A stretch of 63,556 nucleotides of DNA, counting the filler, from Psammoneis japonica (taxonomy: Eukaryota): the NCBI GenBank assembly GCA_008632985.1. It is 7 parts of 7 records of this genome, joined end to end, with 100 filler letters (N's around TTAATTAATTAA, not from the genome) between each part and the next. Parts side by side here need not be neighbours in the genome. Positions count along the whole stretch, not along the records: positions 9,714 to 19,447 come from QPGO01000532.1; 6 more parts are not named here. One strand, 5' to 3'. Each line of letters begins with the position of its first letter. The stretch's first letter is position 1. Shown here piece by piece: positions 1,969-56,222 of the stretch. The notes below the pieces were generated by a model. That model worked only from the letters and a program-made list of their open reading frames with translations. It searched no databases and was not told the DNA's origin. The position numbers were made by a program, and so were the translations under genes.

Positions 1969-3701
1969 GGTGACAATGTTCAGTACCACTTTTGCGAATT
2001 TTCGATTGTAAGTGCTGTCCGACAACTTCCGGTCAATAATTGAGAGTCACGCGGTCACAGATCTCGATAGAATGGTTATGGACTCGAAAGCGGTTTCACG
2101 TAGCAGTCGTAAGACATGTGCGTGAGGTTCATTATTTGTCGTATAAGCCTGCACGTGACCTGCAAATATGATTATTTAACAACGAGACATGAAACATTTA
2201 TGCTAAGAGAGCATCTCGTTTTGTCAGGAACAGATATTCTTGATTTGAAATGTCTACAAATATAAAGAATGCTGCATGTCTATACATTTAATAAAAATAT
2301 CGCAATTGTCTTACTTAAAGATAACTGATCATGGCTGGCATTTTCAAGTAGCCACAAAGACTTATTGTTTTTCGCTCTTAATTATTTATGAGTATATATG
2401 GTCATCGGACGTGTAATTATGTCTTTTTCTTTTAATCCTACCACAAGTCTACGAATAAAAATACTTATGCATTGTGTCCGCCTGGGCACGTGGAAATGCG
2501 TCACTCCATCAGGGCAGGGGCATGCACAGCGAAGCGCAGTCGGTCTGCACCACCATGCCGTTCTTGCACGACTGTTCTCTCCCAGAGAAAGACTCACCAG
2601 GCAAGTGAGCATGGAGCCAGTTTAAATCTGCTGTGAGTCCCAGCCATCAGTCTGGCTGCCCCCCCCCCTCAGCAGGAGTTGGCAAAAATCAAAGCACGCT
2701 CTGGCTCCGGGGACGGAGCCTTGCACCCCTGGGCTGCGGTGTTGATTTTTTGCCATGTGTCTTGTGTCACACACCAATGTTTTTGCATGACTTTGGCGGC
2801 ATTTGGTGGCATTTTGCAGTGCAATCGATGTCTGAGTGGCCCAGTGCTCAACAAGAACACTTCTGGAATTTTTTGTGTGCAGTGCCACCCTCTCCATGGT
2901 TGGCTGTTTTGATGCAGCAAACTCACCTGATTTTGGCAAATGGAAAATCCACACATCCAGGTTTCTTTGAGCAGTTTTGACGTCATGCATGCCAAGCTCA
3001 CTGCAAACATCATCGCCACACAGTTGTTGGAAACAAGCTGTGCATTTTCACATGCATGGCCGCAGCACGTGCTTGTGCCCAACGCAGCAAACAACAAAAA
3101 TGCCGCCCTTGCTGCCACAGGGCTTGTTTGTCTGTGTGTCAATGGCCACATTGTTGATCAAAGAGAGAGCATCATCACACAGTGACAAGACAGTGCTTGG
3201 CTCAATGGCTGTGTCAGATGTTTCTCGCACTGACACCTGCCATCATTCTGCATCCAGACATGCCAACAAGCCAACAAGCAGCGCAATTGCTGACTTTTCC
3301 ATTGTTCTCACATCTGCTGTGCATGTGAGTCCATGAGCAGCACATTTGCTTCCAATTTGGGCAGCCCACTCCTGTGCATCTGATGAGGCAGTGTGCGTGC
3401 GCTGTCTCAGCACCATCATGATGGTCATTTTTTCTTCTTCTTGTGACAGGCACAGAAAACAACATTTTGGTTTCGAAGCGAGGCAGCAGTTTCATCAACA
3501 ACACACCACGCAAAACTTTTGGCAAGGAGCAAAGGTGTGTCCCAGCCAGCATGTGTCTGATGCAGCAACACCGTCAGATCTGTCATGTTGAGCTGGTCCG
3601 TTGGTGTGCCACAACTCCCCACCAGTTTTTTTTTTTGCCAAAACGTGTTCATTGTTTTGTTGCTGGCGGCAACCCAGATTGTCCCTGCTTGTTTTTCACA
3701 A

Positions 3702-4488
3702 GCTCTAATTTGCACAGAAGCCATGTGTTGGTTTCTGTGCATTTGCGTAGATTTTGCACCAATCGCATCGTAGAGGTGTGTTGTTCGCCGGCCCTGACGA
3801 ACTCTTTCTCAGACACAGCACATTTTTCACGATGGCCGGCACATGACTGCCAGCTCGGCGGACACGTTTTGAGTTCTTTTCATGCAGATCTCACCGCAGA
3901 CGCACAGTGCTCAGATTCATTTGGCACAAATCTGCGCAGCTTTGTCACAGATGGCACAGAAACCCGTGGCAAGGTTCTGTGCCATCAAAAATGCTCAGGA
4001 CCTCACTGCGCATTTCTGTGCACAAGCAGGGACATGCAATCAATGCTTGTGTGACATCATTGCATGAAGTTGTGACATTGCAAAAATGTGAATGCTCTGT
4101 GTGCATCAGAGTGCAGAATGTGAAGAACCCATGTCCCTGCTCATTTTTCATGAGAGCTCTAATTTGCGCAGAAGCCATGTGTTGGTTTCTGTGCATTTGC
4201 ACAGATTTTGTGCCAATCGCATTGTAGAGGTGTGTTGTTCGCCGGCCCTGATGAAATCTTTCTCAGACATGACACATTTTTCACGATGGCCGGCACATGA
4301 CTGCCGGCTCGGTGGACACGTTTCGAGTTCTTTTCATGCAGATCTTGCCGCAGACATGCAGTGCTCAGATTTGTTTCGGCGCAAATCTGTGCAGCTTTGT
4401 CGCAGATGGCACAGAAGCCTGTGACAAGGTTCTGTGCCATCAAAAAATGCTCAGGACCTCACTGTGCATTTCTGTGCACAAGCAGGGA
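3702..4488. repeat. Direct duplication of ~330 bp (3702-4033 and 4156-4488)
   Basis: Both copies run GCTCTAATTTGC..CACAAGCAGGGACA. Differences are mostly transitions, often TG versus CA at the same site. Confidence 0.9.
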
Positions 4489-5199
4489 CACAGAGCGATG
4501 CACCTCTAAACATGCATGTTTCACACTTCAAAATTTCCACGACTTGTCGAAACGCGATGACAGTGGCGACCGCAAACGCAACGTGCTCCATCAACAGCTG
4601 CAAACTCACCATGATGCTGACATGCATCAATGTCGCGTAATTCATTTCACATGCACATGCCTTGCTGTGCTTTGACATTGATTGATCGCAGCAAAAACAG
4701 CTGAAATGTTCAATTTTTTGCCCATCGCTTTTCGACCGCATGAGTCAACAATGAGCCCGTTGCACTCGCGTGCGTCAATTGCACCGCACATGAGTTCACA
4801 AGAGATGAAATGTGGTTGATTGTTGTGGCTCTTTAAGGTGATGCTGTTGAGGAAACGGCGACCGTGGAGTCGCCATGGTGTGGTGGTTTCCGTGGTTTCC
4901 GGCTGCGGCATTTTAGCGGCGAGTTCGCAGTGCTGAAACTGAGTTGTGCTTGTCGAGTTTGCATGGCTGCCGCTTTGCACATCATGTGCCCACCATTCTC
5001 AGTGGCGGGGCCGCCAGCAAAAAAAAAATGGACGTTTGGCAGAAAAAACAACAACTCAGCCACAACTCGCTGCTTTGGAAGCCTCGTGCTTGTTGCTTTT
5101 TCAACCAACACAGCAGCTGGTGAATTTTTTGTTCCTCTGTTGTGTTTTTTGTTCTTCCTCTGTTGTGTTTTTGTTCATCTGTTGACTGGATGATGTGGC

Positions 5200-8100
5200 A
5201 CATGCAAGAATGTGTGCTTCATGATGGGGCAATGCAGGGAAAACCAAGCTGTGCAATGGACAGGAGCTCCAAACCACTGGTGACCAGATCTGTTGTCATC
5301 TCAACAAGCTTGCTCCAAACCCATGCTCAAATGGCTCAGAGCAAGCTGAGTGGCTGCCCTCCCTTGCATCTGTGCATTGTCTGCACCAGAGCCAAATTTG
5401 CCACCTGCAGCTGGACATGCTTGCCAGCAGCCAACCACCCTTCTCTGTGGAGTGGTGCAGTGCAGGCAGATTTTCAAGAAGTGCAGCCACCAACAGGTGC
5501 AGCTGTGCTGCAAACTTGGTCATGTGGAGCTTGTGCACAGAATTTTGCAGGCTCTTGTCACAACATGGAGTCCTGCCCAGGGCCAGCTGGCTGGCTTGAG
5601 GGTTGTCAAACAAAGAAGCAGCACCCACTGATGGATTCCATCTCCTCCAAGGAGGTTCAAGCCAGAGCTGCTTGTGGTTCTGCCTTCTCCTGTCTTTTTT
5701 GCAGCAGCCTGCTGGCCATGCATGTCATCTCCTCACACTCTGCAACAAGGCAGCAATGCTGGGCTTGATGATTTGTTGGCCACTCAGCACTTTGTGACCA
5801 GCTGGTCATTTTCAGGGAAATGCAAGAGCTTCTTTGTGGTGGCCATGCAGAACAGCTTGGCTTGGAGCTCAACAAAAACACCAGAGCAACTTTTGTGCAC
5901 TGTGGCTGCAGAGTGCTTTTGTTTGTGTTTGACTTGCTTGCTGTGCAAAAGAAGCCCTTTGGAGCTGGCCACCATCAACCTGACATCTCATCCTCTGTTG
6001 ATGCTGTTTTGTGGCAACTGTGCAAAACAGCTTGACTTGGAGCTCATTGACAAAAGCACTTGATGCAAGTGCTGCATGAGTTGCTTTCATGCATGCTTGA
6101 TTTGCCCCACAAAAACTTGGGCTCATTTGGCATGCTTCCCACTTTGTTGGCCAAGTTTTGTGAGCAACTTTTGCAATGATGGAGTCATGTGTGGAGAATC
6201 CTCTCTCCAAAAGGCAGCCACAAAAGACCCTCAGCTTGAAACGTGGCTGGTTGGAGCAAAAATCTGAAACACACACTGAGTCACAAGCACCACACATGCT
6301 TCAACCAGGCATGTCCAGTGCCAAACCTCAAACAACCAGAGAGGTTTGCACTTTTCCCACAACAGGCAAGAATCAAGCACTGTGGTCATCAAGGATCAAG
6401 GTGGACAAAAGTGATTTGCTGAGACTTCACTTTTTGGCAACAGGAAGAGCCAGAAATGCAGCCATGATGGAACAACAGTGTGCTGGGGTCCAAGCACATT
6501 GCTGCAAATCTGAGATTTGAGAAAGCTGCCATGATTTCTCAAGAGGTGGCATGAGAACAACACCTGGGAAAAGGAATGCCCTCCAAGGAAGAGCACCAGT
6601 GCTCATCACCAGCAAACACCAGAGAGAAAAAAGAAAAAACCAAAAAACCAAAACACACGTGTGGTGCCAGATTCTTGGTTGCTCCATGAGCACTGCAAAG
6701 GAGAGCCAATGTTTGGACCCACCTAAATTTTTGCTGACAGCTGAACTTTGTCTTTTGTGCAGCTTGGTGAGAAAATGACAAGACTTTTTGAAAGAAGTGC
6801 AAAACTGTGCCCACAAAACACTGCATGAAAGATGGCATTTTTGCCTCTGAAAGCACGCACAAAGTGCTTTTTCATTTCCTGGACAGTCTGAACCTGCACA
6901 AGTGCTGGAGTGTGCACTCCACATTGAGACAAAAGACATCATCTTCTTGGACCTGCCATGGCACAACTCTGGGTCAAAGCTTGCCAAGTGATCTGCAGGC
7001 ATTTTTGGACTTCAAAAAGACAAGGTGCAACGACACCAACGTGGGGTGGAGCAGTGGCTGCTCCCATGAAAGACAGAGAAACAAACTCTTCCTTTTGGGT
7101 GCTTTTTTTGCCTTGATTGAGTTCAAGAATCTGGTGCTGTGGAGGATCCAAGCAGCTGTGTTGATGAGATTTTGGAGGGTGGCAGCCATTGTGCTGCAGC
7201 ACAGATTTGCGCACCACTGCAATCATCCACAAAGAAGCTGTGCACCAGACAATGGGTGAGCAAGCAGAAAAAGCTCAGCCAACTTTCCTCAGAACACAAG
7301 CACCCCTTTGGCAGCACTCTGGGAAAGAGGGGCAGTCAACTCCAGCCAAATTCCAGCTCCAAGGAGGAGCAAGGCTGTGCTGCTTCAAACCATGTGCCCG
7401 CTGCTCTGCACTTGTTGGAAGCACCAACATGAAAGGAAGTTGGCCAGCTGCGCTGAGCAGGTTGGGTGTTGCCACTTGCAAGGAAAATCACAGTGGCAGC
7501 TCATTTGTGTGATGATTTTTTCACATGTTTTGTTCTTTCATTTGTTGCCACCACACCTCCAGCCTGTCCCAACGAGACCAGCCCCAACTTGGATCAGGCT
7601 GGAGGTGCACAGAAACCATTTTGCACAGACAAACCACCACTGAGACTTTCCTTGCATGAGGCAACACCCAGAGCATGCTGCAAATTACCACAGTCCACTC
7701 AGAGCAGGTGGTGCCAACCTTCTCTTTGCTGAAAAAGATCAGGGGGCAAAGTGCGGCTCTGTGGCCCAGCTGTCATGAGATGAGAAGGTGTGTCAAATGA
7801 GAGGCATGTGTGTGACACGCTGAACACAGAGGATTCACTTTAGAAACTGGGAGCTGGCAATTTTCCCAAATGCCCAACAAACATGTGCAGAAATTCCAGC
7901 AAATCTGTGCATCCAAGTTTGCACACCCAAATTTGTGGTGCAAGCCTGGCTCCCATGACCACGCAGCTCTTGTCTCCCAAAGTGCTCAAATTTGTGTGTC
8001 AGCTGAGGTTCCTCTCTGAGGCAGAAAAGCCATGCTGTTGGAGAGAATCTTGCTTTCCAGAGCAAGCAAGTTTGACACATCCTGTGCAAATTTTGCAGAA

Positions 8101-8560
8101 GCTGTTCTGACACCTGCACATGAAATTGTGCGCAAGGTCAAGCCTGTGTGAGAAGAAAACTCACAAAAAAACAAGTTTTTGCACAAACTTGGGTTTGTCA
8201 TCACAATTTCCCATTGGAGATTTTTGGGACAAATTTGGACATTTGGAAAACACTGCCACCACTTGCTGCATCTTTGGACCCAAGTGTGGGTGCTGCAATG
8301 CCCCCCCTTTTTGGAGTGCACTTTGGAGCCAGAGCAGCAGGTTTTGACTTTGTTCGACAGAGTTTGTGCAGGTGACATGCTGCGTTGCATTCAACAGACT
8401 TTTGGTGGTGGTTTCAGAAATCAGAAGAAGTGCTCAAAAGAGCCAAGCAAGCCAGCAGCCCAAAAATTCAGCACCTGTGTGAACTCCAAAGTCTCAGCCA
8501 CCCACTTGGGGCCTCGCATTGTGAAAAACAGAGCCCAGCACAAGATGCAGTCTCCTGAGG
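5200..8560 (-). mobile_element. Possible heavily decayed non-LTR retrotransposon
   Basis: An FVDD motif resembling the RT catalytic motif in ORF 7123-7317, plus block length and decay pattern. No intact ORF. Confidence 0.3.
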
Positions 8561-9068
8561 TGCAAAAAGAGCTGCGGTGCTTTGTTGGTCAGCTGCGATG
8601 GCATGTGGCTCTAAAGGCCACATTTTTTTGGCCAACCAGCTGGCTCACCCGGCCTGCTCCAGCTCCAGGTGATCTGCTTTTCATCATGCGAAAGGCCGAT
8701 TTTCTGTGCAGTTTGGCGCAATTGACTCCCTCAATTTTGATCGTTTTGAAAATCGAAAGGTGAGTGCACACCCAAAAACACATGCAAAGTGCACACTTGC
8801 CCTTCGATTTGGCAAAAAACGGATTTGGAAAAAGTCAATTGCGCCAAATGCACAAATTTCCAAATGATGGGAATCGAACCCGCTCGGAGCACCTGGAGCT
8901 GGAACAGGCCACCCAATGCATTGAAAATGTCAAAGTGGCAGTGGGACAATTTGTAGAAAAAAGGAACCAAAGGCCACAAAAAAGCTGTTTTCAAGGAACA
9001 TGTCCTTTTCTTGTGCCCAGATTTCAGTGAGCCACCATTTGACACCTGCCCACATGCCACCGCAAATT

Positions 9069-9069
<1 letters not shown>

Positions 9070-9131
<62 letters not shown>
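9070..9131. repeat. (CA)n microsatellite, ~31 units
   Basis: Directly visible. Confidence 0.97.
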
Positions 9132-9133
<2 letters not shown>

Positions 9134-9146
9134 GCTCCAACAAGGC

Positions 9147-9414
9147 TGCACATTTTGTTCATGGGAGTTGGTGAGTGGCCCACAAGCACAACATGCAACA
9201 ACAAACAGAGAGAGAGCGGCTGTTGATGATGAAAACACTCAAGAAGTTGGGGAACATGTTGCGTGTGCTCTGCTCCAGAAACCCACACAGCACATTTTGT
9301 TCATGGGAGTTGGTGAGTGGCCCACAAACACAACATGCAACAACACACAGAGAGAGTGGCTGTTGTTGATGAAAACACTCAAGAAGTTGGGGAGCATGTC
9401 GCGTGTGCTCTGCT
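9147..9414. repeat. Tandem duplication of ~125-145 bp
   Basis: GCACATTTTGTTCATGGGAGTTGGTGAGTGGCCCACAA..GCGTGTGCTCTGCT occurs at ~9147 and ~9290. Confidence 0.9.
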
Positions 9415-9613
9415 TCTTGGTTGTTTGAGAGGCGCAGACCAAAAATCCACACGTTGTTGGAGCTGACAGAGCAGGCACACACAAGCTGTTTGCTGCCCCC
9501 GCCAGACTGCAATGGTGTCTTCCCAGCTGTTTGTGGTGCCAATGAGACCAAACAAGCAACAATTGAACAAAAAGCTGCCGCTCAAGCCACTTCAAGAAAA
9601 GAAGTGTGATGCA

Positions 9614-9713
9614 NNNNNNNNNNNNNNNNNNNNNNNNNNNNNNNNNNNNNNNNNNNNTTAATTAATTAANNNNNNNNNNNNNNNNNNNNNNNNNNNNNNN
9701 NNNNNNNNNNNNN
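9614..9713. other. Artificial scaffold linker
   Basis: N44-TTAATTAATTAA-N44, with stops in all six frames. Confidence 0.98.
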
Positions 9714-13795: not shown

Positions 13796-14069
13796 CCGTG
13801 ATTATCATAGAAAATCTGTGCCACAGATTTTGGTTCAAAATTAGTACAGATTTTCAAGGATTCCGGAGAAATAGATACAGATCCTCAAAAAGTATAGATT
13901 TGCACTGATTCTGCCAAAACTGGATTTGGGTTTTCTCAGATTTGAAGAACCCCTCCCCTGCTGGGGTACAGATCCCAGATTTCCGTTCAGAACAGGCACA
14001 GATTTTCTGAAGCCCTGAAAAATAGGTACAGATTCTGATTTTGGCACAGATTTTCTATGACAATCACGG
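13796..14069. mobile_element. 274-bp MITE, Tc1/mariner-pogo-like
   Basis: 28-bp TIR CCGTGATT(A/G)TCATAGAAAATCTGTGCCA, flanked by TA on the left and CA on the right. Many internal ACAGAT motifs. Confidence 0.8.
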
Positions 14070-14071
14070 CA

Positions 14072-17000
14072 CCACCAAGGAGCTCGTGCAGGGAGGTGAC
14101 GACACTGCGCTGCCCGCATTTGCTGCAGGCCTGCAATCGTGCTGCTCAGACGGGAGATGGAAGTGCCTCTTTCTTTAGTTTCTTCATCATGGGCCGAAAA
14201 CATGTCACACTCCTTGGCCCCTGTCAGCCATGTGGTTTCCATTTCAGCGAGAAGGCTTTCTTCAATCATTCCATTCCCTCTCATGTGCCTGATGAAATCT
14301 CCAAGGAGATCAATGGAGCAGATGCTTGCGACCCTTCCAATCTCGGTGAAGTGGGAATTGGTCTTTTGAAGTTCTACAGACACTTTGCGCCTGTCATGAG
14401 CCGAAACAGAGAATGGAAAACCTCCTGTCTCCACGGTGCTTCTGGCGACAAACTTCAACCTTCGAATCGCCCAGAACTCAGCAAACCGAGTGTTCAGCCT
14501 TGTGCTGACAACGACACGTTCGCCGTTTCCCGACAACCTCACTCCTTCCATGTGCCAATGCCAACTTGTGCTAAATTCAAAAGAACATGAAACAGCCACC
14601 TTGCCTTTGTCGCTTTTGCCAATGCCAGCTGCAGTTGGAGCATCAAGAGCAATCTTCTTAAACCCCCTGATCAGATCTGCACCCCCCTTGTTCTCATTCT
14701 TTGAATTGTCCAGCAAACAAATTGCAAATTTGAGGTGAGCAAGCTCATCCAGGGGAGTGCCTCAGGGAGCACACTGAAAGCCTGTGTCCCTTCTCCAAAC
14801 TTCCCTTGTGATGACAGCTCTCCCATGGCTGGAACTGGAATTTCCAGCAGAACAGTGCCAGGTGTGACTGTCTGTGCTGGTGGTGCAGGACTTGTGGGCC
14901 TCAACCTTGATCAAGATCACCACGTGCAATTGGCAGGAGGAGATTTGAAATCTTCAGAATTTTGGCAGGCAACAGCTGGTGCTCCCTGTTCTTCTGTTGT
15001 CACAAGAATGCTTTCCTCACAACATGATGAAATCTTGTTGCCAGCTCTGAGAATTGTTTGAACTTCTTTGCCAATGGTGGCATCAAGTTGCTTGAGGTCG
15101 TTGCTTGCTGGCACTTCCCAGCAAGCAACAAATCACGGGTCGGCTGCATGCAATGTCATGCAAACCCTTTTCCAAATGGGTGGAATGTTGACCATGTTGT
15201 TTGTTTTTGGCACACCATCCCATCCAAGTTGAAGTCCGATGAGCAGCTGCAAGTGTGCTCAAGCTCTGGTCTCACCCCATCACAAGCAAGTGTTGCTGTC
15301 AACAGTTGGGTGCTGATTTGAACCTGCTCCAGCTTTGTCATTCAAACAGCTTGTTGGAAATGCTTTGTGTTTCCCATGCAAAAAGGCAGCGAACATTGAA
15401 TCAATTGGGATTGCATGCTCTCAAAATCCGTGCATTTGTGCCCAGTGGACTCAGAGTCTGAGTCCACTCAGAGCCCAAAAACCTTTTCCTCTGAGCTTTC
15501 AACATGTTTGCAAGTTGTTTGCTGACAGACAAAGTGTCTGTGGCCTTCATTTCCAGCAAACAGGCATCTTGGTCAACTGACGAGGCATGTGGGTGTTTGC
15601 AGACATTTGCACCATGACTCCCGCCACAACCATCATCTCTTTTTTCTTGTTTTCTTTTGTCTTGCCGCTGGCTCAAATGGCAAAAAGAAAAAAGAACACA
15701 AGGATGCAGCATGACATCCTGGCTCATGCAGATTTGCACCTGTCCCGTTTGTCACTGTGAGCTGGAAACAAACGTCCAACTCTGAACGCCGGTCACAAAG
15801 AATGTGCGCACCTCCATTGTAAGAAACCATTTGCTCAACATGAACTCAAACACACAAGCCCAAGGCTGTTCAAGCAATTGGTGCCACTGGACCTGGAGCC
15901 AACCCACATGGAACAATGAGGTTTTGTGGGGACACCAAGACAGGATGGATGACATTGGTGGATCCCAAAAGTTCAATGTCTTTTGGTGCCGGAACCCAGC
16001 AAGTGCCCCTTGTCATTGACACACATCACGAGTGTCTTAGAGCTGAAACTCTTTGTGTTCACAGTTCTTTTGCAGTGCTCATGCGGACATCATTGTGGAA
16101 GAATCGAACACCATTTTGCCATTGAAGGGTTCTGGGTGACTGCAATGAAGTCAATGAGAATCTCATGACAAGAGTGGCAGTGAATTGCCAAGAGGATTTC
16201 AGCTGTCAAGATTCCAAGATGCAAAAGGTCATGGAAACAGCAACAGAGTTGGATGACAACAATGATGCTTCTTCACAAGAACCCAGATCACAGTCATCAA
16301 CTTGTGTGTTGGAAATCAATGAAGAGTTCTGCAAGCTGTTTGCTCACAGCCAAAGCACCAGCTGACACTGTCATGGAGTGGATGAGCAGCTGTCAGATTC
16401 AGAAAAAATCCTGTCAAAAAATTGTGCTTGCCGTTGGTTCCAACCAATGCAGCTGATCCAAGTTGGTGCCTTTGTCAGCCCAAGCTCATGAGATGAGTTC
16501 TTGTGATGCTCATTTTCCAGCTGGCTAGATTTGCACTCCTGTGGACATGACGCTTTGCAGCTGGGCAGTCTTTGCAGGAGCATTTGTTGACATGTCATCA
16601 TTTGTGCAGAAAAAAGAGTGATTTGATTTGCCAAATCATTGTTGCTCATGGACCACCACAAGCTGTTGGTTGTGCAACAGTTTTTGCTTTCAAAGAAAAA
16701 GCTCCCTGTCAACATTTTTGTTGAAAAGAATCATGCCTCATGCCCTTGACTGAATCAATTCTCCATCAAAAGGAAGCAACAGTGTGAAAACAAACAGAAG
16801 ACAATGTTCAAGACATTGAAGCTTTGGCATTCCAATGGAATGGCAGTTTGACAAGATTGGGGAAAGAGTGCAAGTGGGACAGATCACTCTTGAGAGAGAG
16901 TGGGTTGAAAAGTGTCAGCGGGAATTCTCAGCAAAGTTGTGCATTCCTGAATGAATCTCAGTCACTCGTGGATGTTTTTCAGAAGGAAGCAGCCAACCAA

Positions 17001-19447
17001 GTGCTTTTGAAACTTGGGCAGCAAGAGGAGCAATTCTTGATCGTGGAGTTCAATGATGATGCAACAAAACAAAGAATCACACACGGTCGCATTGTCAGCT
17101 TGCAAAAGAATGTCTCATTCTCTGGGACGGGTTCTAATCAAGAGCAAGAACAAAAGAGGATGAGCATCCAGATGAAATTGCCTTTAAATTGAAAGCTCAC
17201 CTTGAAAAAGCAATGGATGCATGGTTTCGTCTCGGGTTGACAAACAAATTGTCGATCCACGGCCTTGGCGTGCACGGCAGTGACGACTTTGAATTTTGGA
17301 GTGGTCTTCACAAATGAAATGATGAAGAACTCATGGAGCAGGTGCATCATTGTGAGACAATGGATGCATTGTGCACTCAGGGATTTCACTCTCTCTCACT
17401 CTAAGCAGCTGAAATTCAACGCTTTCACATGTTCAGTGCAAGCAGCCAGAGTCACACGGAGGAGGTCAACGAAAGTTGAAAACGCAAGTTCAAAAGTGAT
17501 CGAGCTGAAGTGGGTGCGGCAGCCCGAGTTGAAAGGGAAAAAGCTTGGAATCACATCTTTGAGGCCTGCAAAACAGGGAAACCAGTTCTTGAAGATCCCT
17601 TGGTGGTGCTGACCAAGGGAACCTCAGCATGGTCCACATCCAAGCAATGACAATCATTCGTGCATGAAAATTTAAGCAAACAACATGTGTGAGGAAGACG
17701 TGACCGCAATGACGTCATTGAACTGCACTGTCATTGCTCAAAATCAGTTCAAAGCTCACGAATTCAAACTGCAACAATGGACAAGAACAGCGCGACTCTT
17801 TGACAGCCACATCGTTGACACAGAAAAAAAGAAATCTTTTGATGTCTTTCTTCAACTTGCCCCAACTTGTGTTTTCTTGTGCATCTCTCATTTCTTGACA
17901 ATTGCTCACTTCTTTCCTTGGAACAAACACCACACATGAGACACTGGCATTGCTGTCTTGGACAGGCCATTGTGTGGTCATTTGCCCTTGGAAGCCAGCA
18001 CCGCAAACGGAATCATTCGTGGCACATCGTTCATGGTGTTGCGCAACGTTGCTTGCATTGTGCATTGAGTGCATGCATGTGCTCGTTCCTCGTTGAGAGC
18101 ACAACGCACTGAAACAAACAAAGTTGAATCAGTGCGACGAAAATGCGTGCCATTCTATGCACGTGGCCAACATGCCAAGAATCGGGATGCTGAATGCGCG
18201 AAATGCACGTGAGCTCGAAGGAGAATCCGACACCGCGCCGCAAGCCACAAGAGCAAGCGACAACAATGCCAAAGCTTTGATCGACTGTCGCATTGTTGTT
18301 CGTTGTTTTCTTTGTCTTTGTCATTGTTGTCTTTGTCATGGACGCGGCGCCTTTGTTGGACTTTGGCGGTGAAGGAGATGAGACTCCCGAACGAGAGTGC
18401 ATGCAACGCTTGTTCCAAAGGATTGCGGTTCAAAACGAGCAGGAAATGGAGAAACTTGAAGAACCATTGCGGTCGCTGGTGCGACTGGTGCATCAGGCAA
18501 GGACACATTTTCTTTCAGCTCTGCACTCCCCATGGATGGAGAATTGAAACCGAAAAAAAGAGAATCAACTCACGTGCGCTGATTGCCTTTTGCTCAAAGC
18601 AAAAATGGGTCGAGGCAAAGGAGTGCATCCTGTTGCACCCACAAGCAATGCATGAGATCACAACTTTGTTTGCTGGCAGATCTGTCACTCACATGGCCTG
18701 CAGCAATTTGGCTGATGTTGAAGAATTCAATGAAGCAGCTCGTGTTCAAAAACTCAACCAAGATGATAAAACGGAACGTCAAACATGTGACTTTGTGCAG
18801 TCATTGTTTGATGCAGCTTTCAGTTCCGACGATTTAGATTCACCCTCGAAACGGGCACTCGCACAATCAATGTTGTTTTGTCGCGATTGCAAAGGATGCA
18901 CGCTGCTGCAAAGCCGCGTCATCTACAACTTCTGGAGTGCGACTGATCCAGCGCCGCCAGCAAAGATTCTTCTGGAGTCGGCTGGAAATGCCTCTCCCAC
19001 AACTCCGTGCGAATTGGTCACCGCTGCATGCGAGAGAGGCGGACAGTGTTGCACATTGCATCAGGGGGGGAGTTCCCGCACCAGATTTTTGAGCTTCTAA
19101 TGGCTTGTTGCGGAGGCGCTCCGTCAGAGAACCCACTTTAATTCTAGATGGAGATGGTCAATCCATTCTAGACCTTGCGGTTGTCAATGCTCTGTCGGGA
19201 AGGCGTTGGAATGGGATGTTGGAACAAGGTTTCGGAGGACTTGTGCATCAAAATGATGAGGGTTTGTTTCCAATTGACAGAGTGGTTCAGGTTGCTCATC
19301 GTTTTGAGAGACCGGGAGAGCACATCTGTGAAATTGTTTTTCTCATGTTGCGAGCTCACTTTGGAAAAGTCGAAGCAGCATCTGAAGACTGGTTTCCACT
19401 TCATGCTCTGGCGCAGGCACCCTTTTGTTGCCCGTGCGTGTCAAAGA
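14072..19447. mobile_element. TpA-depleted block of decayed coding sequence (unclassified element or silenced genes)
   Basis: TA is nearly absent. Fragmented, protein-like, Tyr-poor ORFs on both strands. Confidence 0.55.
18540..19447 (+). pseudogene. Ankyrin-repeat-like gene remnant
   Basis: Ankyrin-like motifs RSVTHMAC, DCKGCTLLQ, DGDGQSILDLAV, GLFPID and WFPLHAL, spread over frameshifted ORFs 18303-19100 and 19105-19447. Confidence 0.45.
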
Positions 19448-19547
19448 NNNNNNNNNNNNNNNNNNNNNNNNNNNNNNNNNNNNNNNNNNNNTTAATTAAT
19501 TAANNNNNNNNNNNNNNNNNNNNNNNNNNNNNNNNNNNNNNNNNNNN
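19448..19547. other. Artificial scaffold linker
   Basis: N44-TTAATTAATTAA-N44. Confidence 0.98.
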
Positions 19548-29110: not shown

Positions 29111-29210
29111 NNNNNNNNNNNNNNNNNNNNNNNNNNNNNNNNNNNNNNNNNNNNTTAATTAATTAANNNNNNNNNNNNNNNNNNNNNNNNNNNNNNNNNN
29201 NNNNNNNNNN
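29111..29210. other. Artificial scaffold linker
   Basis: N44-TTAATTAATTAA-N44. Confidence 0.98.
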
Positions 29211-32705: not shown

Positions 32706-33093
32706 GACGGGCTCCAGTCCCAGGTGGGACTTTTTGTGACATTTGCCCCGCAGAATTCTATGTGCGAGCTCTGCAGTTCGCACTCGGGTCAATGGACACA
32801 TTTGTCTTCGACACAAAATAAACAGCCAAGTTTGCAGTGCATGTGTCTCTGTTCGCACTCAAAGTTTTGGACAATGCGCCTGCCCTGCACCATTCTTAAG
32901 ACACTCGAGAATGGCGCAGAAGAAAAAATGTTAAAAGTTGTTGAATGGATCGCCTGATGATTGTGCTATAAAATGATGCAAAATTTCGCAAAAATCACGT
33001 AGAAATGCACGTGCGAGACATGCGACGCGATTCAAAAAACTGTCGACATCACAGTTCAGCAGTGCAAGGTCCCACCTAGACCTGGAATGCGTC
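32706..33093. mobile_element. ~390-bp MITE (GAC..GTC family), TSD GGAA
   Basis: TIR GACG(C/G)GTTCCAG....AGGTGGGA, with GGAA on both flanks. Confidence 0.9.
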
Positions 33094-35031: not shown

Positions 35032-35427
35032 AACGCGCTCCAGCCCCAGGTGGGAGCTCGCAGTGCTGATGTGTGACAACAATGATTTTCATCATCCGTC
35101 GTATGTTTCGTACGTAGATTTCTACGTGTGACATTTAAAAAAAATTGTCCAGACTCACTGTTTTGCGAAGCCCCAGACGTTTTGTGTGACAAATTTACAG
35201 AAACAACAGTGCGCCAGTTGCATTCTTCAATGTCTGAAGAATGCAACTGGCCAAGCAAAAAATGATGCACTTCAATCATGTGCGAGTTTGTGCGTTCGCA
35301 AAATTGCCTCATTTTCTGTTGGCGATCATTGACATTTTAATTGCCGTGTGATTTTGCTGCAGAGCTCGCACGCAGAAGTCTGCGGGCCAAATGTCACACG
35401 GATTCCCACCTGCGTCTGGAACGCGTC
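35032..35427. mobile_element. ~395-bp MITE (GAC..GTC family, second subfamily), TSD GGCC
   Basis: Reverse complement of 53573-53970. Removing it restores ELNGRTCHRVDNHNVVCSAS. Confidence 0.92.
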
Positions 35428-48424: not shown

Positions 48425-48546
48425 ACGGAATCGGCGGCTTTCCGCTTCTTCATGGTCGTTTTGAGATTTGTCGGTCCACCAACATTTCGTAGTTTCGTTT
48501 CTGCAGATTTCGTCACCTCGCACAACATGCGGGAGTGACATTGCTG

Positions 48547-49417
48547 TGCCCCATGCATGTGCCAGGCGCTGAAAAAGAAGATGTGTTGCGACTTTGTCGT
48601 TGTGAAAATTGTGAGCTAGTTTAGAGCAGAGAAAATGGGATCGTGCGAATGGGGAATCTTGCCAAATCCCTGTTCGTTCGCATTTGGATCGCATCAAATC
48701 GATCGTGCGTTCGCATTGTGGATCGTGCGAATCAAGCCATCACGCGCNNNNNNNNNNNNNNNNNNNNNNNNNNNNNNNNNNNNNNNNNNNNNNNNNNNNN
48801 NNNNNNNNNNNNNNNNNNNNNNNNNNNNNNNNNNNNNNNNNNNNNNNNNNNNNNNNNNNNNNNNNNNNNNNNNNNNNNNNNNNNNNNNNNNNNNNNNNNN
48901 NNNNNNNNNNNNNNNNNNNNTGCATGCAGACAAAAGGTTATTTTGTCACGCCCTTTGTGACATTTAAAGGCTGCAACACGTCGCCGTGATGCGCTGGCTC
49001 TTGTCAGCAGCTGTGTGTTGCACTCCTCCCCATGTGTCACGCGACCCACGCTCGCGTGTGCTGACGCTGCACGGTTTTGGCAGAACAGCGTGGGTGCATG
49101 CGAAGGAACACACAGAACTGCACAGAGTTTTACGCGCTCGACAGTGACCAACGTTGCTGCAGACAACTCCCACTCGGGTTTCGAACCCCTGGCCTCCTGC
49201 CTGGTGGTTGCGATGCACCACTCCGCTGTGAATTCACAACGCAGCATGCATGCAGACAAAAGGACATTTTGTCACGCCCTTTGTGACATTTAAAGGCTGC
49301 AACACGTCGCCGTGATGCATTGGCTCTTGTTGGCAGCTGTGTGTTGCAGCTGCGTTGCCATGCACAAGAGGCTCATGCACGGTCTCGCCGTGTTGTCCAG
49401 CAGCGAGGCATGCTGCA
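48547..49417 (-). mobile_element. Probable solo or rearranged LTR of the Gypsy family at 56223-57546 (contains a gap and an insertion)
   Basis: 48547-48747 matches 56223-56420, and 49351-49417 matches 56588-56653. Confidence 0.6.
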
Positions 49418-49534
49418 CAAGAAAGTCATGTGGGTGGGCCGCTCCATCCAGGAACCAAACCACCAGCACTGGATCTTCTGCAATGTTGCCGGGGCGCAGC
49501 TGCTTGATCGCAGCAGAGGCTGCAATGACCGCTG

Positions 49535-50160
49535 TCATGTGGCCAGCCTCGATGGCCGCCGCCATGCTTGGCACTTGAACGCTGAAACAACCGGGCAGCC
49601 CAGCTCATCAAGCCTCCCCCCCTCACATGACAAATGGAAGCGGGGAAAAGGAAATGGGAAAGGGGAGCACGGACAACACAACACTGCCAAGCACAAAAAT
49701 CAATGTCAGGACAGCATGGAAATGACACACCCACAGACAAACTGACAAAAAATGACACCACCAAACAAAAAATTGTGCGTCAATTTGACAGGGTTCGGGC
49801 AGTGGACAGCAAGCAAAGGCCAAAAGGTGAGGCTGAAGGGAAAATGGGAAATGGGAAATGGGTGAAGTGCAGAGCTCAGCTCAAGCACAAAACAAACTTT
49901 GGCGAATGTTTGCAAAACTGAAAGAGAGAAACAAAATGCAGAAATGAGGTGCGCTGTGAAAGACACAGATGGAGCATGCAGCAAAGCAAGGAAGAAACTT
50001 CAGAGAGGAGCTGGCTGGTCTGAAACAACAGAAGAGTCATCGTTGGCTTCAAGGGCGGCGTTGTTCAGCTGCTGTTTGTTGGCATTGCCAAACATTTCCT
50101 GGGCTTGACGACAGAAAACCAGAGCTTCATGGCACTCTTGACTGAGTGGCTCAGGAATGA
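49535..50160. repeat. ~620-bp dispersed repeat; second copy at 55188-55808
   Basis: Near-identical CTCGATGGCCGCCGCCATGCTTGGCAC..GAGTGGCTCAGGAATGA. Confidence 0.9.
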
Positions 50161-50258
50161 CATCATCTGGGCAGATGAAAAGCCCGAAGTGGTGGAGGTG
50201 ATTGAGGCCGGGGTGGGAACGGCAGCACCGATGTTCTGGTGTCCTGGATCAGCTGGGA

Positions 50259-50569
50259 GACGGGTTCCAGCCCCAGGTGGGACTTTTTGTGACACTGGTT
50301 CTGCAGAATTCTGCGTGCAAGCTCCGCAGTGAAATTGTCAAGCAATGCATGTGCCCTTTGCAGTGTGTCCGGGCACACTCTTCAGTCACCAAAGAACACA
50401 CCCAGTGCATTTTCATTGTCACAGATGTGCACAACAGAAAGCATTTGGCTTCACAAAACAGGCAGTGTGGAACAATTTTTTACAACAGAACACGCAGAAA
50501 TGTGCACGCGAAACATGCGACGGATGACAAAAACGATTGTGTCGCAGCTCAGCAGTGTGAGGTCCCACC
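50259..50569. mobile_element. Shorter, truncated member of the GAC..GTC MITE family
   Basis: Left TIR GACGGGTTCCAGCCCCAGGTGGGAC. The right end stops at GAGGTCCCACC. Confidence 0.8.
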
Positions 50570-51496
50570 AGTGATCACATGGGCAATCGCTGCAATTGCC
50601 AGTGTTCGTTGGAGCCCTTGCATGAAAATTGGCTGAGGTGGCCAACCCAGCGGGCTGAAGGACAATTCTGAGAAGCCCGACAGCTGCAGAAGNNNNNNNN
50701 NNNNNNNNNNNNNNNNNNNNNNNNNNNNNNNNNNNNNNNNNNNNNNNNNNNNNNNNNNNNNNNNNNNNNNNNNNNNNNNNNNNNNNNNNNNNNNNNNNNN
50801 NNNNNNNNNNNNNNNNNNNNNNNNNNNNNNNNNNNNNNNNNNNNNNNNNNNNNNNNNNNNNNNNNNNNNNNNNNNNNNNNNNNNNNNNNNNNNNNNNNNN
50901 NNNNNNNNNNNNNNNNNNNNNNNNNNNNNNNNNNNNNNNNNNNNNNNNNNNNNNNNNNNNNNNNNNNNNNNNNNNNNNNNNNNNNNNNNNNNNNNNNNNN
51001 NNNNNNNNNNNNNNNNNNNNNNNNNNNNNNNNNNNNNNNNNNNNNNNNNNNNNNNNNNNNNNNNNNNNNNNNNNNNNNNNNNNNNNNNNNNNNNNNNNNN
51101 NNNNNNNNNNNNNNNNNNNNNNNNNNNNNNNNNNNNNNNNNNNNNNNNNNNNNNNNNNNNNNNNNNNNNNNNNNNNNNTTGGGGTTGGGTCAGGCAGAAC
51201 CAAGTGCTCTCGCGACGTCAACTCGATCGAGCTCCGCTCCGCTCCACTCTCTCTCGTTGAACTTGTCGCATCGAGCACTTCTGGGTTGGGGTCAGGGAAA
51301 AGGAAAAAAGGAAAAAAGAAAAAAGGGAAAAAAAGGGAAAAAGAAACAAAGGGAAACAAGGGAAAAAGGGAGGGGGGGACAGAGGGAAACAAGGGAAACA
51401 AGGGGAAAAAAGGAACAAAGCAAAACAAGAAAAAAATTTGGAGACCAAGGTTCGAGTCCTTGTCTCTGCCTTTTTTTACTTTTTTTTACCATTTTC

Positions 51497-54400
51497 ACAT
51501 TTGGTGCTGTTGATGAGGCTCGCTTTGCCAACTGGGGATCAAGAGGGCACGGAGGATGCGAGGACCTTGTTGCTGATCTCAACTTGAGCACAGTTGCCAA
51601 TGAGCTTGGGCGGGGCACGGCGATTGCGAATGTTGTCTTCAAGCGTGTTGACAAATTCTTGTCGGTTTTGACTCCGCACACATCCGTGACAAGGGATTTG
51701 GTGCCAACAAAGAGCTGGGCACTGGCGCAGCTGGAGTCAACAGCGGGGTGTCAGAGTGCACCATGTTGGGCAACGGGTTCGTTGCATCAGTGGACGTTGA
51801 GAGCCGGGTTGGGCAACTTGTGCACCTTTTTCAAGTGCGTGCTGTGCGTCATGCAATCAAAAGTGTGGTGGACAGTGTCCTTTGGAAGAAAGCCAAAACA
51901 AGGGTGCAGAGACTCAAAGTTGGGGTCCTTTGGATTGATCTCATGCTCATGGCATTTGCAGAAGAAATTGGACGTCGGGAGCAGGTGGTCATCAAGGACG
52001 GAGTCCACAAGCATGGCATTGTTGATGACATGATGGTGGTGATGGTTGCCGAACTTGTCAAAGAGGTTGGCAGTCGGTCGGCCTGGAGGTCAGATGCAGC
52101 ATCATGCTGCGTCTCATTGTCGGCGATTCTGGTGGTTGAGGGACAGATGGGTCCCAAGTGTTGTCACCTGTGAGGATGACGTGTGGCAAGGTGTCCCATT
52201 TGGCGTCAGTGTGTGGGAGCATGGCAATGTGCAGAAGGCCGCCTTTGATGTCAATGGGGATGACACATCCATCAATGTGGTGATGCACTGCAGACCACTG
52301 GGGACCTTGATGGGCCGATCATTGATGTCGTGTTTGTGCCGCTCAAGTTGACCGCAAGAGTGCATGGTCTTGCCCTCACCAGTGCAGGCATGCTGGTGAA
52401 GAGTGGTGATGATGGGGCCACGTTGGGTGTGGATGACACCACCCGCAGTGACAATGGGAACATCGACCAGCTGGTGATTGTCGACACCTTTGACATCAAC
52501 CTGGTGACCAGCGTGAGCAATGACATGAACATCGTCACCGGGCAACACCGCTGTTTGCACCGCAATTCACGTGGGTGCCTTTGCAAGTGGATTTGTGGGT
52601 CGAGGCAGAGCAGACGACATTGTGGTTGTTGACATGATGGTGTTCATGACCATTGATCTCAATGTCAGTGTCATCAAGCTTCTCGTCAGAGCAGACAGAA
52701 GGCACAGATCCGGGGGGTTTCTCTCCAGAATGGGCGGAAGGAGGCAGCTCAGGTGCAAGGAGACGTTGCAAGTCACTGGGTGGCAGAGGCTTGCAGCTGG
52801 TGAGATGAGCCAGAATGGGGTCAGCAACGCAGCATGGCATGGTGCGGAGCACAAGGAGCCGTCTTGGGGGCAAACGTGCTGTCGTGCTGTGCCATGGCAG
52901 AAAGCAGGAGTCCATGGCACTGCTCACAAGAAAGGCCCTTGCCATTCTGTGCGCGAAACTGATTGGCCTGATTCTTTGCCAAGCGCAGTTCTTCGACAGG
53001 GTGAACAGAGTTCTCAAGCATGACACGTTTCTGTCCAGCCAAGAAATGGTCCGTGCCCAGGATGAGAGCTTGCTTGAGCATCAGAGGAGCCAACATGTTC
53101 ACAAAAGAGTGCCTTGCCTTTGTCACTCTGCAAGATGCATTCGAGCACAATGACCATGTGCCCCCGTTGTTCATCGATCAGGGCCTTGTCCTCAGCTGCA
53201 GAGGGCTTGTGCTTCGGATCAAGAATGCGGTCAACTTCGTGGGAGCGGGCCTGTGCAATGATGGAGGTGTGCCACGTGTGCCACTGTTTGTCAGACTTGA
53301 GAAGCGCAAAGGTGAGTGGGTTGCGTTTGATGCCTTGTTTCAAGTCACGCATGGGGTCATGTGGTTTGGGTGGCAACAAGCCAGGAATGGGGGCAGAAGG
53401 TGCTGTGCCCATGGAGAGGGACGCTGCGTGCTCAGGACTGAGACGACAGTTGGTGAACTCCTCGTGTGTGAACAATTGGGGGTTGTTGCTGACATTGGTG
53501 CTGCCGCGCACTTTTGCCATGTGCAGGCTAATCAGCGCAGCTCTCTGTGCTTTGCAGCCATGTGGCAAGGGCGACGCGTTCCAGACGCAGGTGGGAATCC
53601 GTGTGACATTGGGCCCGCAGACTTCTGCGTGCGAGCTCCGTAGTAAAATTGTGCGGCAATTAAAATGTCAATGATCGCCAACAGAAAATGAGGCAATTTT
53701 GCGAACGCACAAACTCGCACATGATTGAAGTGCATCATTTTTTACTTGGCCAGTTACATTCTTCAGACATTGAAGAATGTAACTGGCGCATTGTTGTTTC
53801 TATATAAATTTGTCATGTAAAACGTCTGGGGTTTCGCAAAACAGCGAGTCTGGACAATTTTTTTTAAACATCACACGTGGAAATCTACGTGCGAAACATG
53901 CGACGGATGACAAAAATCATTGTTGTCACACGTCAGCACTGCGAGCTCCCACCTGGGGCTGGAACGCGTCGGGCATTTGATTGGCACCGTCGTTGCAAAC
54001 AAGGGCACCCAGTTGCGCAGGAGCAAAAGAAAAGAGGTCCTGATGCGAGTCAGTTCTGTCAATGTTGAGAGTGGAGTGCAGTGGACTGTCTGCGGCTTGA
54101 CCTCAGAACAGCACCCAGGATGTGCTCGAGGCCATCAATTTGTTGCTGTCTGGTCAGAACCATGTTGCAACTGGGTGAGTGTCGGGATTGGCCAGAGTGG
54201 GAAGGTGAGCTTGAAACAACTTGAAACTTGGCTTGAGTCTTGACTTGAAGTCTTGAGCCATCTTGCAAGTCAGAAGCCACCGTGCCATGACATCCCGTTT
54301 GCCTGCAGAGTTGTGCCGGCACGTCCGAACCCGCAGCTGGCGACAATTTGGGTTGCTTCAGAGCAGAGCAATGGGTTAAAAACCCCTGCTGACAAGCCAG

Positions 54401-55174
54401 CTGGAGGTGGACAAGACCTCCGAACCGTTCTCATTTTGTGTTGGTTGGATGACCCGATCAGGCCGGCCAAATTTGGCACTGTGGAGGGACGAACAAACAC
54501 GGGAGCTGCGCCCTTGCCCCAACGTTCGTGGACCTTGCAGGACTGCAGAAGACCAGCAATCCGGCACAGATGCAAGATGGTGGACTTGGCGTGTGCAAAG
54601 CAGGGCCAGAGTCAAGGGCTCATGTCGTGCGCACATGAGCACAAGCAGATGGATTGGTCTGTCTGCCAACCAGGGCAGAATCTGCTGCGGGGAATCCGGA
54701 ATCTCAGATTTCTGAGAATTCGGGAATTCCTGACCAAACAAATGTCCGTTGAACAAACACATGCAATGATGGGAGGTGTTGGACAAAACCAAATGTGTGG
54801 ATTTAATCCAGCATCCAGCAGCGAAGAAGGCAGACATGTGCTTCCACCGCCAGCTGTGCACGTCATCAAAAAATTTCTCGATGACAATGACGAACGCTCA
54901 GTGGACAAGAATGAGCAAGACTGTTGATCTGACAGAAGTTGAAGATGACTGGGTGGAAGAAAACAGTGACTCCTCGCTGCTGTCTGAGTGGCAGATGAGT
55001 CTCCATGTGGAGACTGTTGCAGGAGCCGAAAGACTGGTGTCGTGATGTCGGCACTGCTGTTGTTGTTCTTGTGAGCCATGTGGCTTGAAAGCAATTTGCA
55101 TTGCACGGTGTGCCCGGAGCTGAGAGCACACATGACTGTGTGCGACAAACTGAAATCTTGCTCAAATCCTGTCA
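51497..55174 (-). mobile_element. Diatom Copia-type LTR retrotransposon (LTR/leader, gag, protease, part of integrase), decayed
   Basis: TGACAGGATTTGA start at 55174. gag MVLTRQQQIDG and LKQGIKRNP..LKSDKQWHTW. pol motifs VDVKGVDNHQ, WDTLPHVILTGD..WDP, PALNVH and AQLFVGTKSLVTDV, with integrase following protease as in Copia. Confidence 0.9.
53573..53970. mobile_element. ~398-bp MITE (GAC..GTC family, second subfamily), TSD GGGC
   Basis: Complete TIRs, GGGC on both flanks, and an internal 16-bp perfect hairpin. Confidence 0.92.
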
Positions 55175-55809
55175 GCAATGACGACCATCATGTGGCCTTC
55201 CTCGATGGCCGCCGCCATGCTTGGCACTTGAACGCTGAAACAACCGGGCAGCCCAGCTCATCAAGCCTCCCCTCACATGACAAATGGGAGCGGGGAAAAG
55301 GAAATGGGAAAGGGGAGCACGGACAACATGACACTGCCAAGCACAAAAATCAATGTCAGGTCAGCATGGAAATGACACACCCACAGACAAACTGACAAAA
55401 AAATGACACCACCAAACAAAAAAATTGTGCGTCAATTTGACTGGGTTTGGCAGCAGACAGCGGGCAAAGGCCAAAAGGTGAGGCTGAAGGGAAAATGGGA
55501 AATGGGAAATGGGTGAAGCACAGAACTCAGCTCAAGTGCAAAACAAACTTTGGCGAATGTTTGCAAAACTGAAAGAGAGAAACAAAATGCAGAAATGAGG
55601 TGCGCTGTGAAAGATGCAGATGGAGAATGCAGCAAAGCAAGGAAGAATCTTCAGAGAGGAGCTGACTGGTCTGAAACAACAGAAGAGTTGTCGTTGGCTT
55701 CAAGGACGGCATTGTTGAGCTGCTGTTTGTTGGCATCACCAAACATTTCCTGGGCTTGACAGAAAACCAGAGCTTCGTGGCACTCTTGACTGAGTGGCTC
55801 AGGAATGAT

Positions 55810-56222
55810 TCAAGCCAAAAATGATCGCAAAGACATGGGCCATTTGGACTCGGAGTGAGGCAGTGTGGGCTGAACATCCTGCAAGAAGCTGACACCTGTG
55901 CCCAACTGAAGCTGCACCCACGCCACTGCAATGCATGACAGAACATGAGGCTGACCACAGCTGCGCCAGTGTCGGAGAAACTGCGCGCATTGGGATGTGC
56001 CCTGCTGCTCCACATCCAATGAACGAAAGCCACCTCCACCAAGAGCACATGGTCCAAACAGTGCATCATGTTTCGCACTGTGATTGCACCCACAGTTTGT
56101 GAAAATCGTGCACATTGCTTTCCGCTGGATCTCCAACAGCTCCTTTGGCAAGAAGCAAGTGTTCTGAAGATTGCAAGACACGGAAGACAAGTGGCGCACA
56201 AAGCAATGTGCCCAAGCTTCAT
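55810..56222 (-). mobile_element. Fragment of a non-LTR retrotransposon ORF (region downstream of RT)
   Basis: LFGP..LGGGGF..L..EQ..G..Q..FLRHWR..W.Q...G....L.D....LPH.E.KW..SLR.FL pattern, recalled from diatom LINE-like elements. Confidence 0.6.

Follow-up and report, generated by a model that had tools for sequence, protein, structure and literature searches.

Context-dependent erasure of TpA in repeat-derived DNA of the diatom Psammoneis japonica

What removes TpA dinucleotides from several kilobases of a diatom genome, and why are a few of them spared? The question is raised by a block at positions 14060 to 19447 of a stretch of Psammoneis japonica DNA of 63,556 nucleotides, filler included, hereafter the window, which joins seven parts of contigs from the 91-Mb assembly GCA_008632985.1 (labelled G000; L-numbers denote loci in that assembly). 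N-flanked TTAATTAATTAA spacers at 9614-9713, 19448-19547, 29111-29210, 38938-39037, 48325-48424 and 57547-57646 link the separate contigs; TA inside a spacer is artificial, and blocks on either side of one are not contiguous in the genome. A sequence-only reading of the block had proposed that its surviving TpA sites are mostly YTAR (Y, pyrimidine; R, purine), which would imply an enzyme-like preference for TAY that favours a deaminase. Comparison of edited and unedited repeat copies shows a mutator that acts after insertion, at the DNA level and on two strands, is limited to domains and follows a context rule. The existence of such a TAY-biased, TpA-specific, domain-limited mutator is regarded as almost certain.

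Surviving TpA sites in erased blocks

Gene-bearing stretches of the window have TpA observed/expected (o/e) ratios near 0.4-0.8, while the TA-erased blocks, at about 2.7-9.6, 14.06-19.45, 31.5-37.5, 41.5-43.9 and 48.4-57.5 kb and from 62.6 kb, show ratios of 0-0.3, with CpA/TpG at 1.4-1.9 (Table 1). The block under study begins directly past a TA at 14056 and ends with its contig. Other contigs carry homologues of fragments of it, and TG or CA stands in the block where less-edited homologues keep TA; aligned over 849 columns, a homologue that is itself fully erased shows 32 TG/CA swaps relative to the block. A six-frame Pfam scan of the block found no family and nothing below E=0.08, and an Atlas search with the open reading frame at 13841-14758 gave no usable match, and the block is classed as repeat-derived by homology alone.

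Between 14072 and 19447, 19 TpA sites are left, against about 373 expected from composition. They comprise 14 YTAR, 3 YTAY and 2 RTAR sites and no RTAY site, which bears out the predominance of YTAR and the absence of RTAY claimed earlier; the eight sites quoted in that reading were located at 14176, 14572, 14659, 16038, 16526, 17135, 17185 and 19169. The gene-bearing control DNA of the window holds 178 YTAR (15%) and 380 RTAY (32%) sites among 1173 TA, and the YTAR bias of the block differs from it at p=3e-8 (Fisher test). Given the excess of TT/AA in the block, a YTAR share of 0.33 would be expected; the bias stays against a first-order Markov null (p=3e-4). The absence of RTAY among 19 sites has a chance probability of 6e-4, with the caveat that a GTAC is present at 18862 in a second copy of the block and in short-read contigs, where the window has GCAC. 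As had also been observed earlier, poly-A tracts persist: the block retains seven A/T runs of at least six bases, or 1.3 per kb versus 0.55 in the control.

The second copy just mentioned (L002, G000:C215:21139-26138) is near-identical to the block and lies on another contig. Five substitution events in 5 kb separate the two, three of them at TA/TG/CA steps, and the short-read contigs agree with the window at some differing places and with L002 at others; these differences may be alleles or consensus errors and are not counted as ongoing editing. Compared with L002 and with the short-read contigs, the window contig shows single-base insertions and deletions, a sign that its consensus may contain errors. 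The short-read contigs confirm the block as a whole; at 17136-17137 they have different letters and give no support to the survivor at 17135, which may be an assembly error. The TAs at 14176, 14375, 14572 and 18156 are true survivors, since they are present in homologous copies too. Newly made TAs were considered as a source of the survivors and rejected: gains exist (28 in six old copies, 14 of them YTAR and 1 RTAY), but they pass the same filter, and four survivors are common to homologues.

The same direction is seen elsewhere in the window. Region 2700-9600 holds 14 survivors (8 YTAR, 6 mixed, no RTAY) and region 48430-57540, minus a younger transposon copy at 53562-53972, holds 23 (11 YTAR, 12 mixed, no RTAY); the earlier statement that the pattern recurs in these regions thus stands for the lack of RTAY, but "mostly YTAR" becomes about half. 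Seventeen 10-kb stretches at fixed positions elsewhere in the genome were divided into 340 windows of 500 bp, of which 107, about a third, are TA-erased. Their 174 survivors include 101 YTAR and 6 RTAY, compared with 618 YTAR and 986 RTAY among 3452 TA in the TA-normal windows; TTAA is enriched 5.2-fold and CTAA/TTAG 3.6-fold, and ATAT and ATAC/GTAT are almost gone. Counting positions from the adenine, every one of the 19 block survivors has T at -3 or A at +2, as do 502 of the 1173 control sites (class-matched p=1.4e-6) and 140 of the 174 survivors of the genome sample. YTAR is therefore an incomplete rule; the +2A/-3T feature is also needed, and it covers 19/19 survivors.

Rates and neighbour bases

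Because end states give no rates, edited copies were compared with unedited ones in two copia families and one miniature inverted-repeat transposable element (MITE), at 283 sites and in 2160 site-by-copy observations. Set A is a copia family in which the least-edited copy (L165, 132 stable TA sites) served as yardstick for 29 more loci; 15 were used, after exclusion of 12 loci with almost no editing and of the 2 that had diverged most. Set B is a single copia pair (L095/L121, 135 sites). Set C is MITE family F1, for which 70 loci chosen by an internal TA-free pattern gave 74 aligned copies; the analysis, at 23 sites, drew on the 31 copies with at least 15% editing and at least 85% identity. 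MITE copies ranked by BLAST were dropped, their ranking being biased toward the edited state of the query (palindromic CCTAGG gave 16 CA to 3 TG), and the pattern-picked sample, where the same motif stands at 17 to 18, was adopted for this reason. TATA sites and sites with altered neighbours were removed from the rate data.

In eight low-background copies TA became TG 240 times, CA 211 times, CG twice and TT once, and was unchanged at 436 sites; as CG and TT are so rare, the process consists of pure transitions with one change per site. In the copia copy L183, 92 of 132 TA sites have changed relative to the least-edited copy (46 to TG and 46 to CA), together with 5 of 243 CpG and 10 of 3501 other sites, and with so few changes outside TA, neither CpG decay nor age can account for its loss as a side effect. 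The per-adenine hazard at TA, measured in seven low-background copies, exceeds that at AA 56-fold, that at CA 103-fold and that at GA 155-fold, and the TA to AA ratio ranges over measurements from about 25 to 56. Changes outside TA affect 81/4899 AA, 41/5408 CA and 40/5447 GA sites (AA above CA, p=3e-5), a ranking from which the old copies L189-L193 were kept out because in them A>G and G>A alike are in excess after a 5' A. This weak activity obeys the same 3' preference, with AAY changed in 19/1489 versus AAR in 1/1730 and CAY in 11/1580 versus CAR in 1/1966; AAA is changed in 1/733. Newly arisen TAs are short-lived, with TG>TA at 1 in 3562 sites.

Over the three element sets TA survives at 202/361 YTAR, 145/343 RTAR, 325/844 YTAY and 153/612 RTAY observations. 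The outcome agrees with a TAY target: YTAY resolves to TG in 403/519 edits and RTAR to CA in 167/198, as expected if the TAY preference proposed earlier is real. With one vote per site, the adenine followed by a pyrimidine is in the majority at 112 sites and in the minority at 19, with 16 ties (sign test). In a competing-risk fit the relative rates for the base 3' of A (+1) are C 1, T 0.87, G 0.38 and A 0.19, with factors of 0.36 for A at +2, 0.42 for T at -3 and 1.03 for a pyrimidine at -2; the main directions of the fit and of site bootstraps agree over the three independent sets. The +1 effect is strand-specific, a purine giving 0.28 (confidence interval, CI, 0.20-0.36) and the mirror-image pyrimidine at -2 giving 1.01 (CI 0.73-1.28). 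The +2A and -3T effects are statistically equal (CI of the ratio 0.68-1.19; likelihood-ratio test p=0.26) and mirror each other: they reflect a single duplex feature, A:T at two steps' distance, which slows both adenines. The slowing extends beyond A-tracts (TCTA 0.36, TRTA 0.53, TAYA 0.45). A model with the +1 position alone predicted too much YTAR at the observed depth of erasure, and four positions fit better; a nearby CpG had a weak and inconsistent effect (0.73 overall) and is not claimed as a cause. The preference inferred earlier is thus a real rate bias of the mutator and not an effect of composition; YTAR alone is not a sufficient rule, and a deaminase, of the TadA type or another, is a candidate agent.

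Strands, domains and repeat families

Both strands of single copies are equally affected, and MITEs, which have no RNA stage, are edited as well. No strand-coordinated runs were found in 15 copies (458 same-strand neighbours versus 449.9 +/- 15.3 expected), with one of the 15 reaching p about 0.01 in a single-copy test. Erased blocks are sharply bounded beside untouched genes, and editing can be patchy within one copy: in L174 most of the first 33 sites have been edited but none of the later ones. CpG decay tracks the edited parts of patchy copies (10/132 versus 0/114, 19/196 versus 0/53 and 41/195 versus 5/52 sites), the cut points between edited and unedited parts having been set by eye. Abrupt stops of editing were seen inside the copia copies L174, L181 and L184; L181 and L184 have common edits at both ends, which suggests recombination or the copying of a partly edited element.

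MITE F1 is abundant, an internal 23-mer having 260 exact matches in the genome. Its copies (L065-L094, L125-L164) are bimodal, 31 of 74 keeping at least 80% of TA and 42 of 74 at most 53%, which suggests that editing came in bursts or that the element transposed in two waves. Some copies are nearly unedited, among them about 30 of the MITE and, in the copia family, twelve that match the yardstick at about 98% identity; many untouched copies are 99-100% identical. Further copia families (L096-L102, L104, L111, L116-L119) have members 95-99% alike that are TA-poor (o/e 0.14-0.40) and carry long open frames; they possibly spread when most of their TA had already been erased.

A (TTAGGG)n telomere array occupies 38029-38938 of the window, at a contig end. 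None of its 16 innermost units retains TA (Table 1), compared with 120 of 121 distal units. As all 16 of these units have lost it, YTAR sites are slow but not immune. For the telomeric context, TTAG, the fitted rates predict 67% TG, and 11 of 15 are seen. The pattern looks as if the mutator reached the portion that telomerase does not renew. Such variant units occur at human telomeres too, for which reason the telomere is taken as a supporting and not a decisive case. Among the host genes of the window, Pfam places a Lon protease gene of the LonB/LonC type (archaeal/bacterial-like) at 25112-27812 on the plus strand.

Table 1. Erased blocks, surviving sites and repeat copies in the window
Feature	Position	Strand	Basis
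TpA-erased degraded repeat-derived block	14060..19447		TpA o/e 0.01-0.11 per kb, CpA/TpG 1.5-1.8
Second TpA-erased block, with strong CpG depletion too	2700..9600		o/e scan and survivor classes
Third TpA-erased block, enclosing a younger TA-rich MITE copy (53562-53972)	48430..57540		o/e scan and survivors
Surviving TpA, part 1	14176, 14375, 14572, 14659, 15820, 16038, 16526, 17135, 17185, 17402		TA positions
Surviving TpA, part 2	17673, 18156, 18767, 18835, 18924, 19098, 19139, 19145, 19169		TA positions
Partly edited MITE F1 copy, 396-bp family with terminal inverted repeats	35033..35427	+	Rate ruler
Copy from the related MITE family F2, edited in part, outside the rate fit	32706..33093	+	Copy alignment
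Innermost 16 telomere units without TA: 11 TTGGGG-type, 4 TCAGGG, 1 ambiguous	38029..38131	+	Unit count

Candidate mechanisms and their meaning

The closest published case is that of Bigelowiella natans, where a mutation-accumulation experiment revealed A:T>G:C hypermutation restricted to TpA in integrated DNA from giant viruses and virophages, at a de novo rate about 1000-fold over background, and ADAT2 was put forward as a candidate (Mettrop et al., 10.64898/2026.01.13.699255). As in that alga, changes here are transitions only, at TpA, on both strands, in domains and not always active. The present case differs in concerning a diatom, in affecting copia elements, MITEs and inner telomere repeats, and in that 107 of 340 sampled windows are erased. 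The telomere repeats are not foreign, which suggests a chromatin domain as the target instead of foreign DNA in itself. The main text of that preprint contains none of the terms "context", "trinucleotide", "flanking", "diatom" and "polymerase", and hence no flank rule; its Table S2 may show flanks. The process described here is a variant of one known from one other alga; a literature search, largely without subscription papers, found no report of TpA erasure in diatoms.

Other known systems agree in part. Repeat-induced point mutation (RIP) of ascomycetes likewise mutates repeat-rich DNA after insertion, on both strands and at one dinucleotide, along with decay of the cytosine-methylation type, but its chemistry is the opposite, making TpA from CpA (PMC7296669), whereas TA is lost here and TG>TA is found at 1/3562 sites; a trigger like that of RIP, homology between duplicated sequences in the sexual cycle, is not evident, many copies that are 99-100% identical remaining untouched. 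[quoted passage not shown] In P. japonica, on the contrary, a 3' G slows the reaction (TAG 0.38 relative to TAC), and the canonical ADAR preference does not fit; nor does RNA editing by ADAR before reverse transcription, given the equality of both strands of one copy and the editing of MITEs. Editors derived from TadA cause TA-motif A-to-G changes genome-wide, in mouse (PMC13225742) and, on both strands, in rice (PMC9398351), and Selict-seq gives a TAT motif for guide-independent edits by the adenine base editor (ABE) ABE8e, citing YAY for ABE7.10 (PMC11983105). They resemble the present mutator in converting A to G in DNA after a 5' T with a 3' pyrimidine preference, and ABE8e off-targets are likewise TA-dominated. 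Dissimilarities are that they are engineered and act on single strands, that the strand-symmetric +2A/-3T effect is not described for ABEs in the parts of these reports available to us, and that CA is not the second-best context as the YA preference of ABE7.10 would have it, lying below AA and level with GA. From the available parts of PMC7884765 and PMC11983243, neither a usable TA:AA comparison nor a 3' ranking that goes beyond YAN could be drawn. The earlier comparison with TadA survives in the match of TAY to the ABE8e and ABE7.10 motifs; what speaks against a plain TadA copy is that CA is ignored here and that the +2A/-3T effect crosses strands.

The mechanism that we favour is enzyme-driven: in double-stranded chromosomal DNA, following insertion, A:T is converted to G:C at TpA. 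The process stays within the chromatin domains where CpG also decays, acts on either strand and at one site per event, and leaves a palindromic TpA dead once one of its adenines has changed. Its rate depends on a near-obligatory 5' T and on the base 3' of the A in the strand that is edited (C~T > G > A), and is lowered about 2.5-fold on both strands where A:T lies two steps away (T-N-T-A or T-A-N-A); the 3'-base effect accounts for the YTAR survivors, and the A:T brake for those with T(-3) or A(+2). Chemically, adenine would most likely be converted to hypoxanthine through hydrolytic deamination by a zinc deaminase and the change fixed at replication, the A being flipped out of the duplex and a 3' purine stacked on it resisting the flip; targeting would be to silent, CG-methylated chromatin. 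Pure transitions are as expected from deamination, and the +2A/-3T symmetry together with the lack of strand-coordinated runs points to a step on duplex DNA rather than to an enzyme scanning single strands. We lean towards an adenine deaminase of some kind as the agent. The fuller proposal, a diatom double-stranded-DNA adenine deaminase with a six-base TpA window (TAY plus a symmetric A:T veto) that is guided to heterochromatin with CG methylation and serves as an inverse-RIP defence of the genome, is tentative, possible rather than probable.

Several points weigh against this mechanism or limit its basis. To our knowledge, from a search that was not exhaustive, there is no natural double-stranded-DNA adenine deaminase. 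Sequence does not distinguish deamination of A from an alteration of the T across from it or misinsertion of G. The deaminase genes found are single-copy, and either have ordinary explanations of the tRNA type or are widespread in diatoms, and ABE7.10 prefers YAY, while CA is here about 100 times slower than TA and AA comes second. Many near-identical MITE copies stay unedited within fully erased flanks. As to the data, the copies partly have ancestry in common, L181 and L184 sharing edits (the rates are the same without L181), and the MITE set has just 23 usable sites.

The genome encodes an ADAT2-like protein (L200), a TadA-like protein (L197) and dCMP deaminases. The ADAT2-like protein has the Asn discussed by Mettrop et al., which is not diagnostic since aligned vertebrate ADAT2 has the same residue. 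At L199 (G000:C79:88506-88676 region) a zinc deaminase domain and a DIOX_N/2OG-Fe(II) oxygenase share one open frame; this fusion probably serves nucleobase metabolism and was set aside, with the dCMP deaminases and others, as metabolic-looking. Two editase genes have the ADAR/ADAT1 fold, one ADAT1-like (L205/L208). The other (L206/L207, G000:C79 about 344170-345890) has three exons with intact CHAE, PCG and SDK motifs, no dsRNA-binding domain was found in it, and its flipping-loop region differs from ADAR and from the ADAT1-like gene; its relatives form a well-conserved clade, 50-66% identical across centric and pennate diatoms. Two single-copy genes of the assembly have named relatives in diatoms. 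The second editase is a candidate for the agent, though a doubtful one. Five Y-family polymerases are present (Rev1, kappa, two eta-like and one iota-like), and the iota-like L210 (G000:C22:252628-253293) has pol iota as its best solved match (E=2e-26 versus 2e-14 for kappa), an assignment by best match only. None of the candidate genes is expanded, and the presence of a gene is no evidence of its function.

Among the alternatives, a deaminase of the TadA/ADAT2 type acting on transient single-stranded DNA (forks, R-loops) in repeats is a sub-case of the deaminase reading, and an unlikely one. The TA/TAT motif known from ABE8e off-target mutations and the ADAT2 with the Asn of Mettrop et al. 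speak for it, and distributive action over many generations would likewise leave no strand runs, so that repeated rounds could mask them. Nevertheless, no same-strand excess is seen even in heavily edited copies, the symmetric +2A/-3T effect has no obvious cause on single strands, and the Asn is shared with vertebrates. We also think it unlikely that a TpA-specific nick or glycosylase is followed by one-base fill-in by a pol-iota-like polymerase placing G opposite template T, the context rule then coming from the upstream enzyme and the polymerase jointly. Mammalian pol iota puts G opposite T more often than A (PMC3031609), L210 could supply the activity, and one-base patches would yield both strands without strand runs, as observed; the scheme requires a second, TpA-specific enzyme, however, and 1 transversion in 454 TA changes and 10 changes at 3501 other sites of L183 leave little space for a low-fidelity polymerase.

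Less probable still is that the thymine is altered, with the T in 5'-R-T-A modified (for example oxidised to a G-pairing base) in a way that marks repeats and is read as C. An A>G change in TAY is formally indistinguishable from T>C in RTA on the other strand, and a heritable duplex mark would suit both the symmetric +2A/-3T effect and the overlap with CpG decay; near-complete conversion would demand a highly miscoding chemistry, though, and a search of the genome for TET/JBP (PF12851) gave 0 candidates in an assembly that may be incomplete. Mutagenesis of the pol-eta type at WA in repair patches is very improbable. Eta-like genes are present, pol eta is error-prone at template TW (PMC6423074), and AA is the second-best context here, an A-to-G preference after T or A that pol eta and pol iota errors share. 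It is largely refuted by the 25-56-fold excess of TA over AA, besides which there are no transversions and no patch-like clustering on strands; the poor fit of a pure WA model, suspected earlier from the persisting poly-A tracts, is upheld by AA being about 56 times slower than TA and by AAA at 1/733. Finally, an artefact of composition, selection or assembly can hardly be entertained. The TT/AA excess of erased DNA, which raises the expected YTAR share, and the one survivor without short-read support are what favours it; it is refuted by the copy comparisons, with changes polarised between copies and seen in non-coding MITEs and telomere repeats, as well as by the Markov test and the short-read contigs that confirm the block.

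The context rule (TAY > TAG > TAA, near-indifference to CA and a symmetric +2A/-3T brake) provides an assay for any candidate deaminase, polymerase or modifier, and this fingerprint could help to recognise a natural editor that turns A to G in DNA. Scoring the 231 mutations from Bigelowiella by the rule would bear on whether rhizarians and diatoms share one machine. Moreover, the rule allows repeat copies in the P. japonica genome to be dated by their remaining TA classes. If a natural double-stranded DNA adenine deaminase is indeed responsible, it would represent a new chemistry of genome defence and a useful editing tool.

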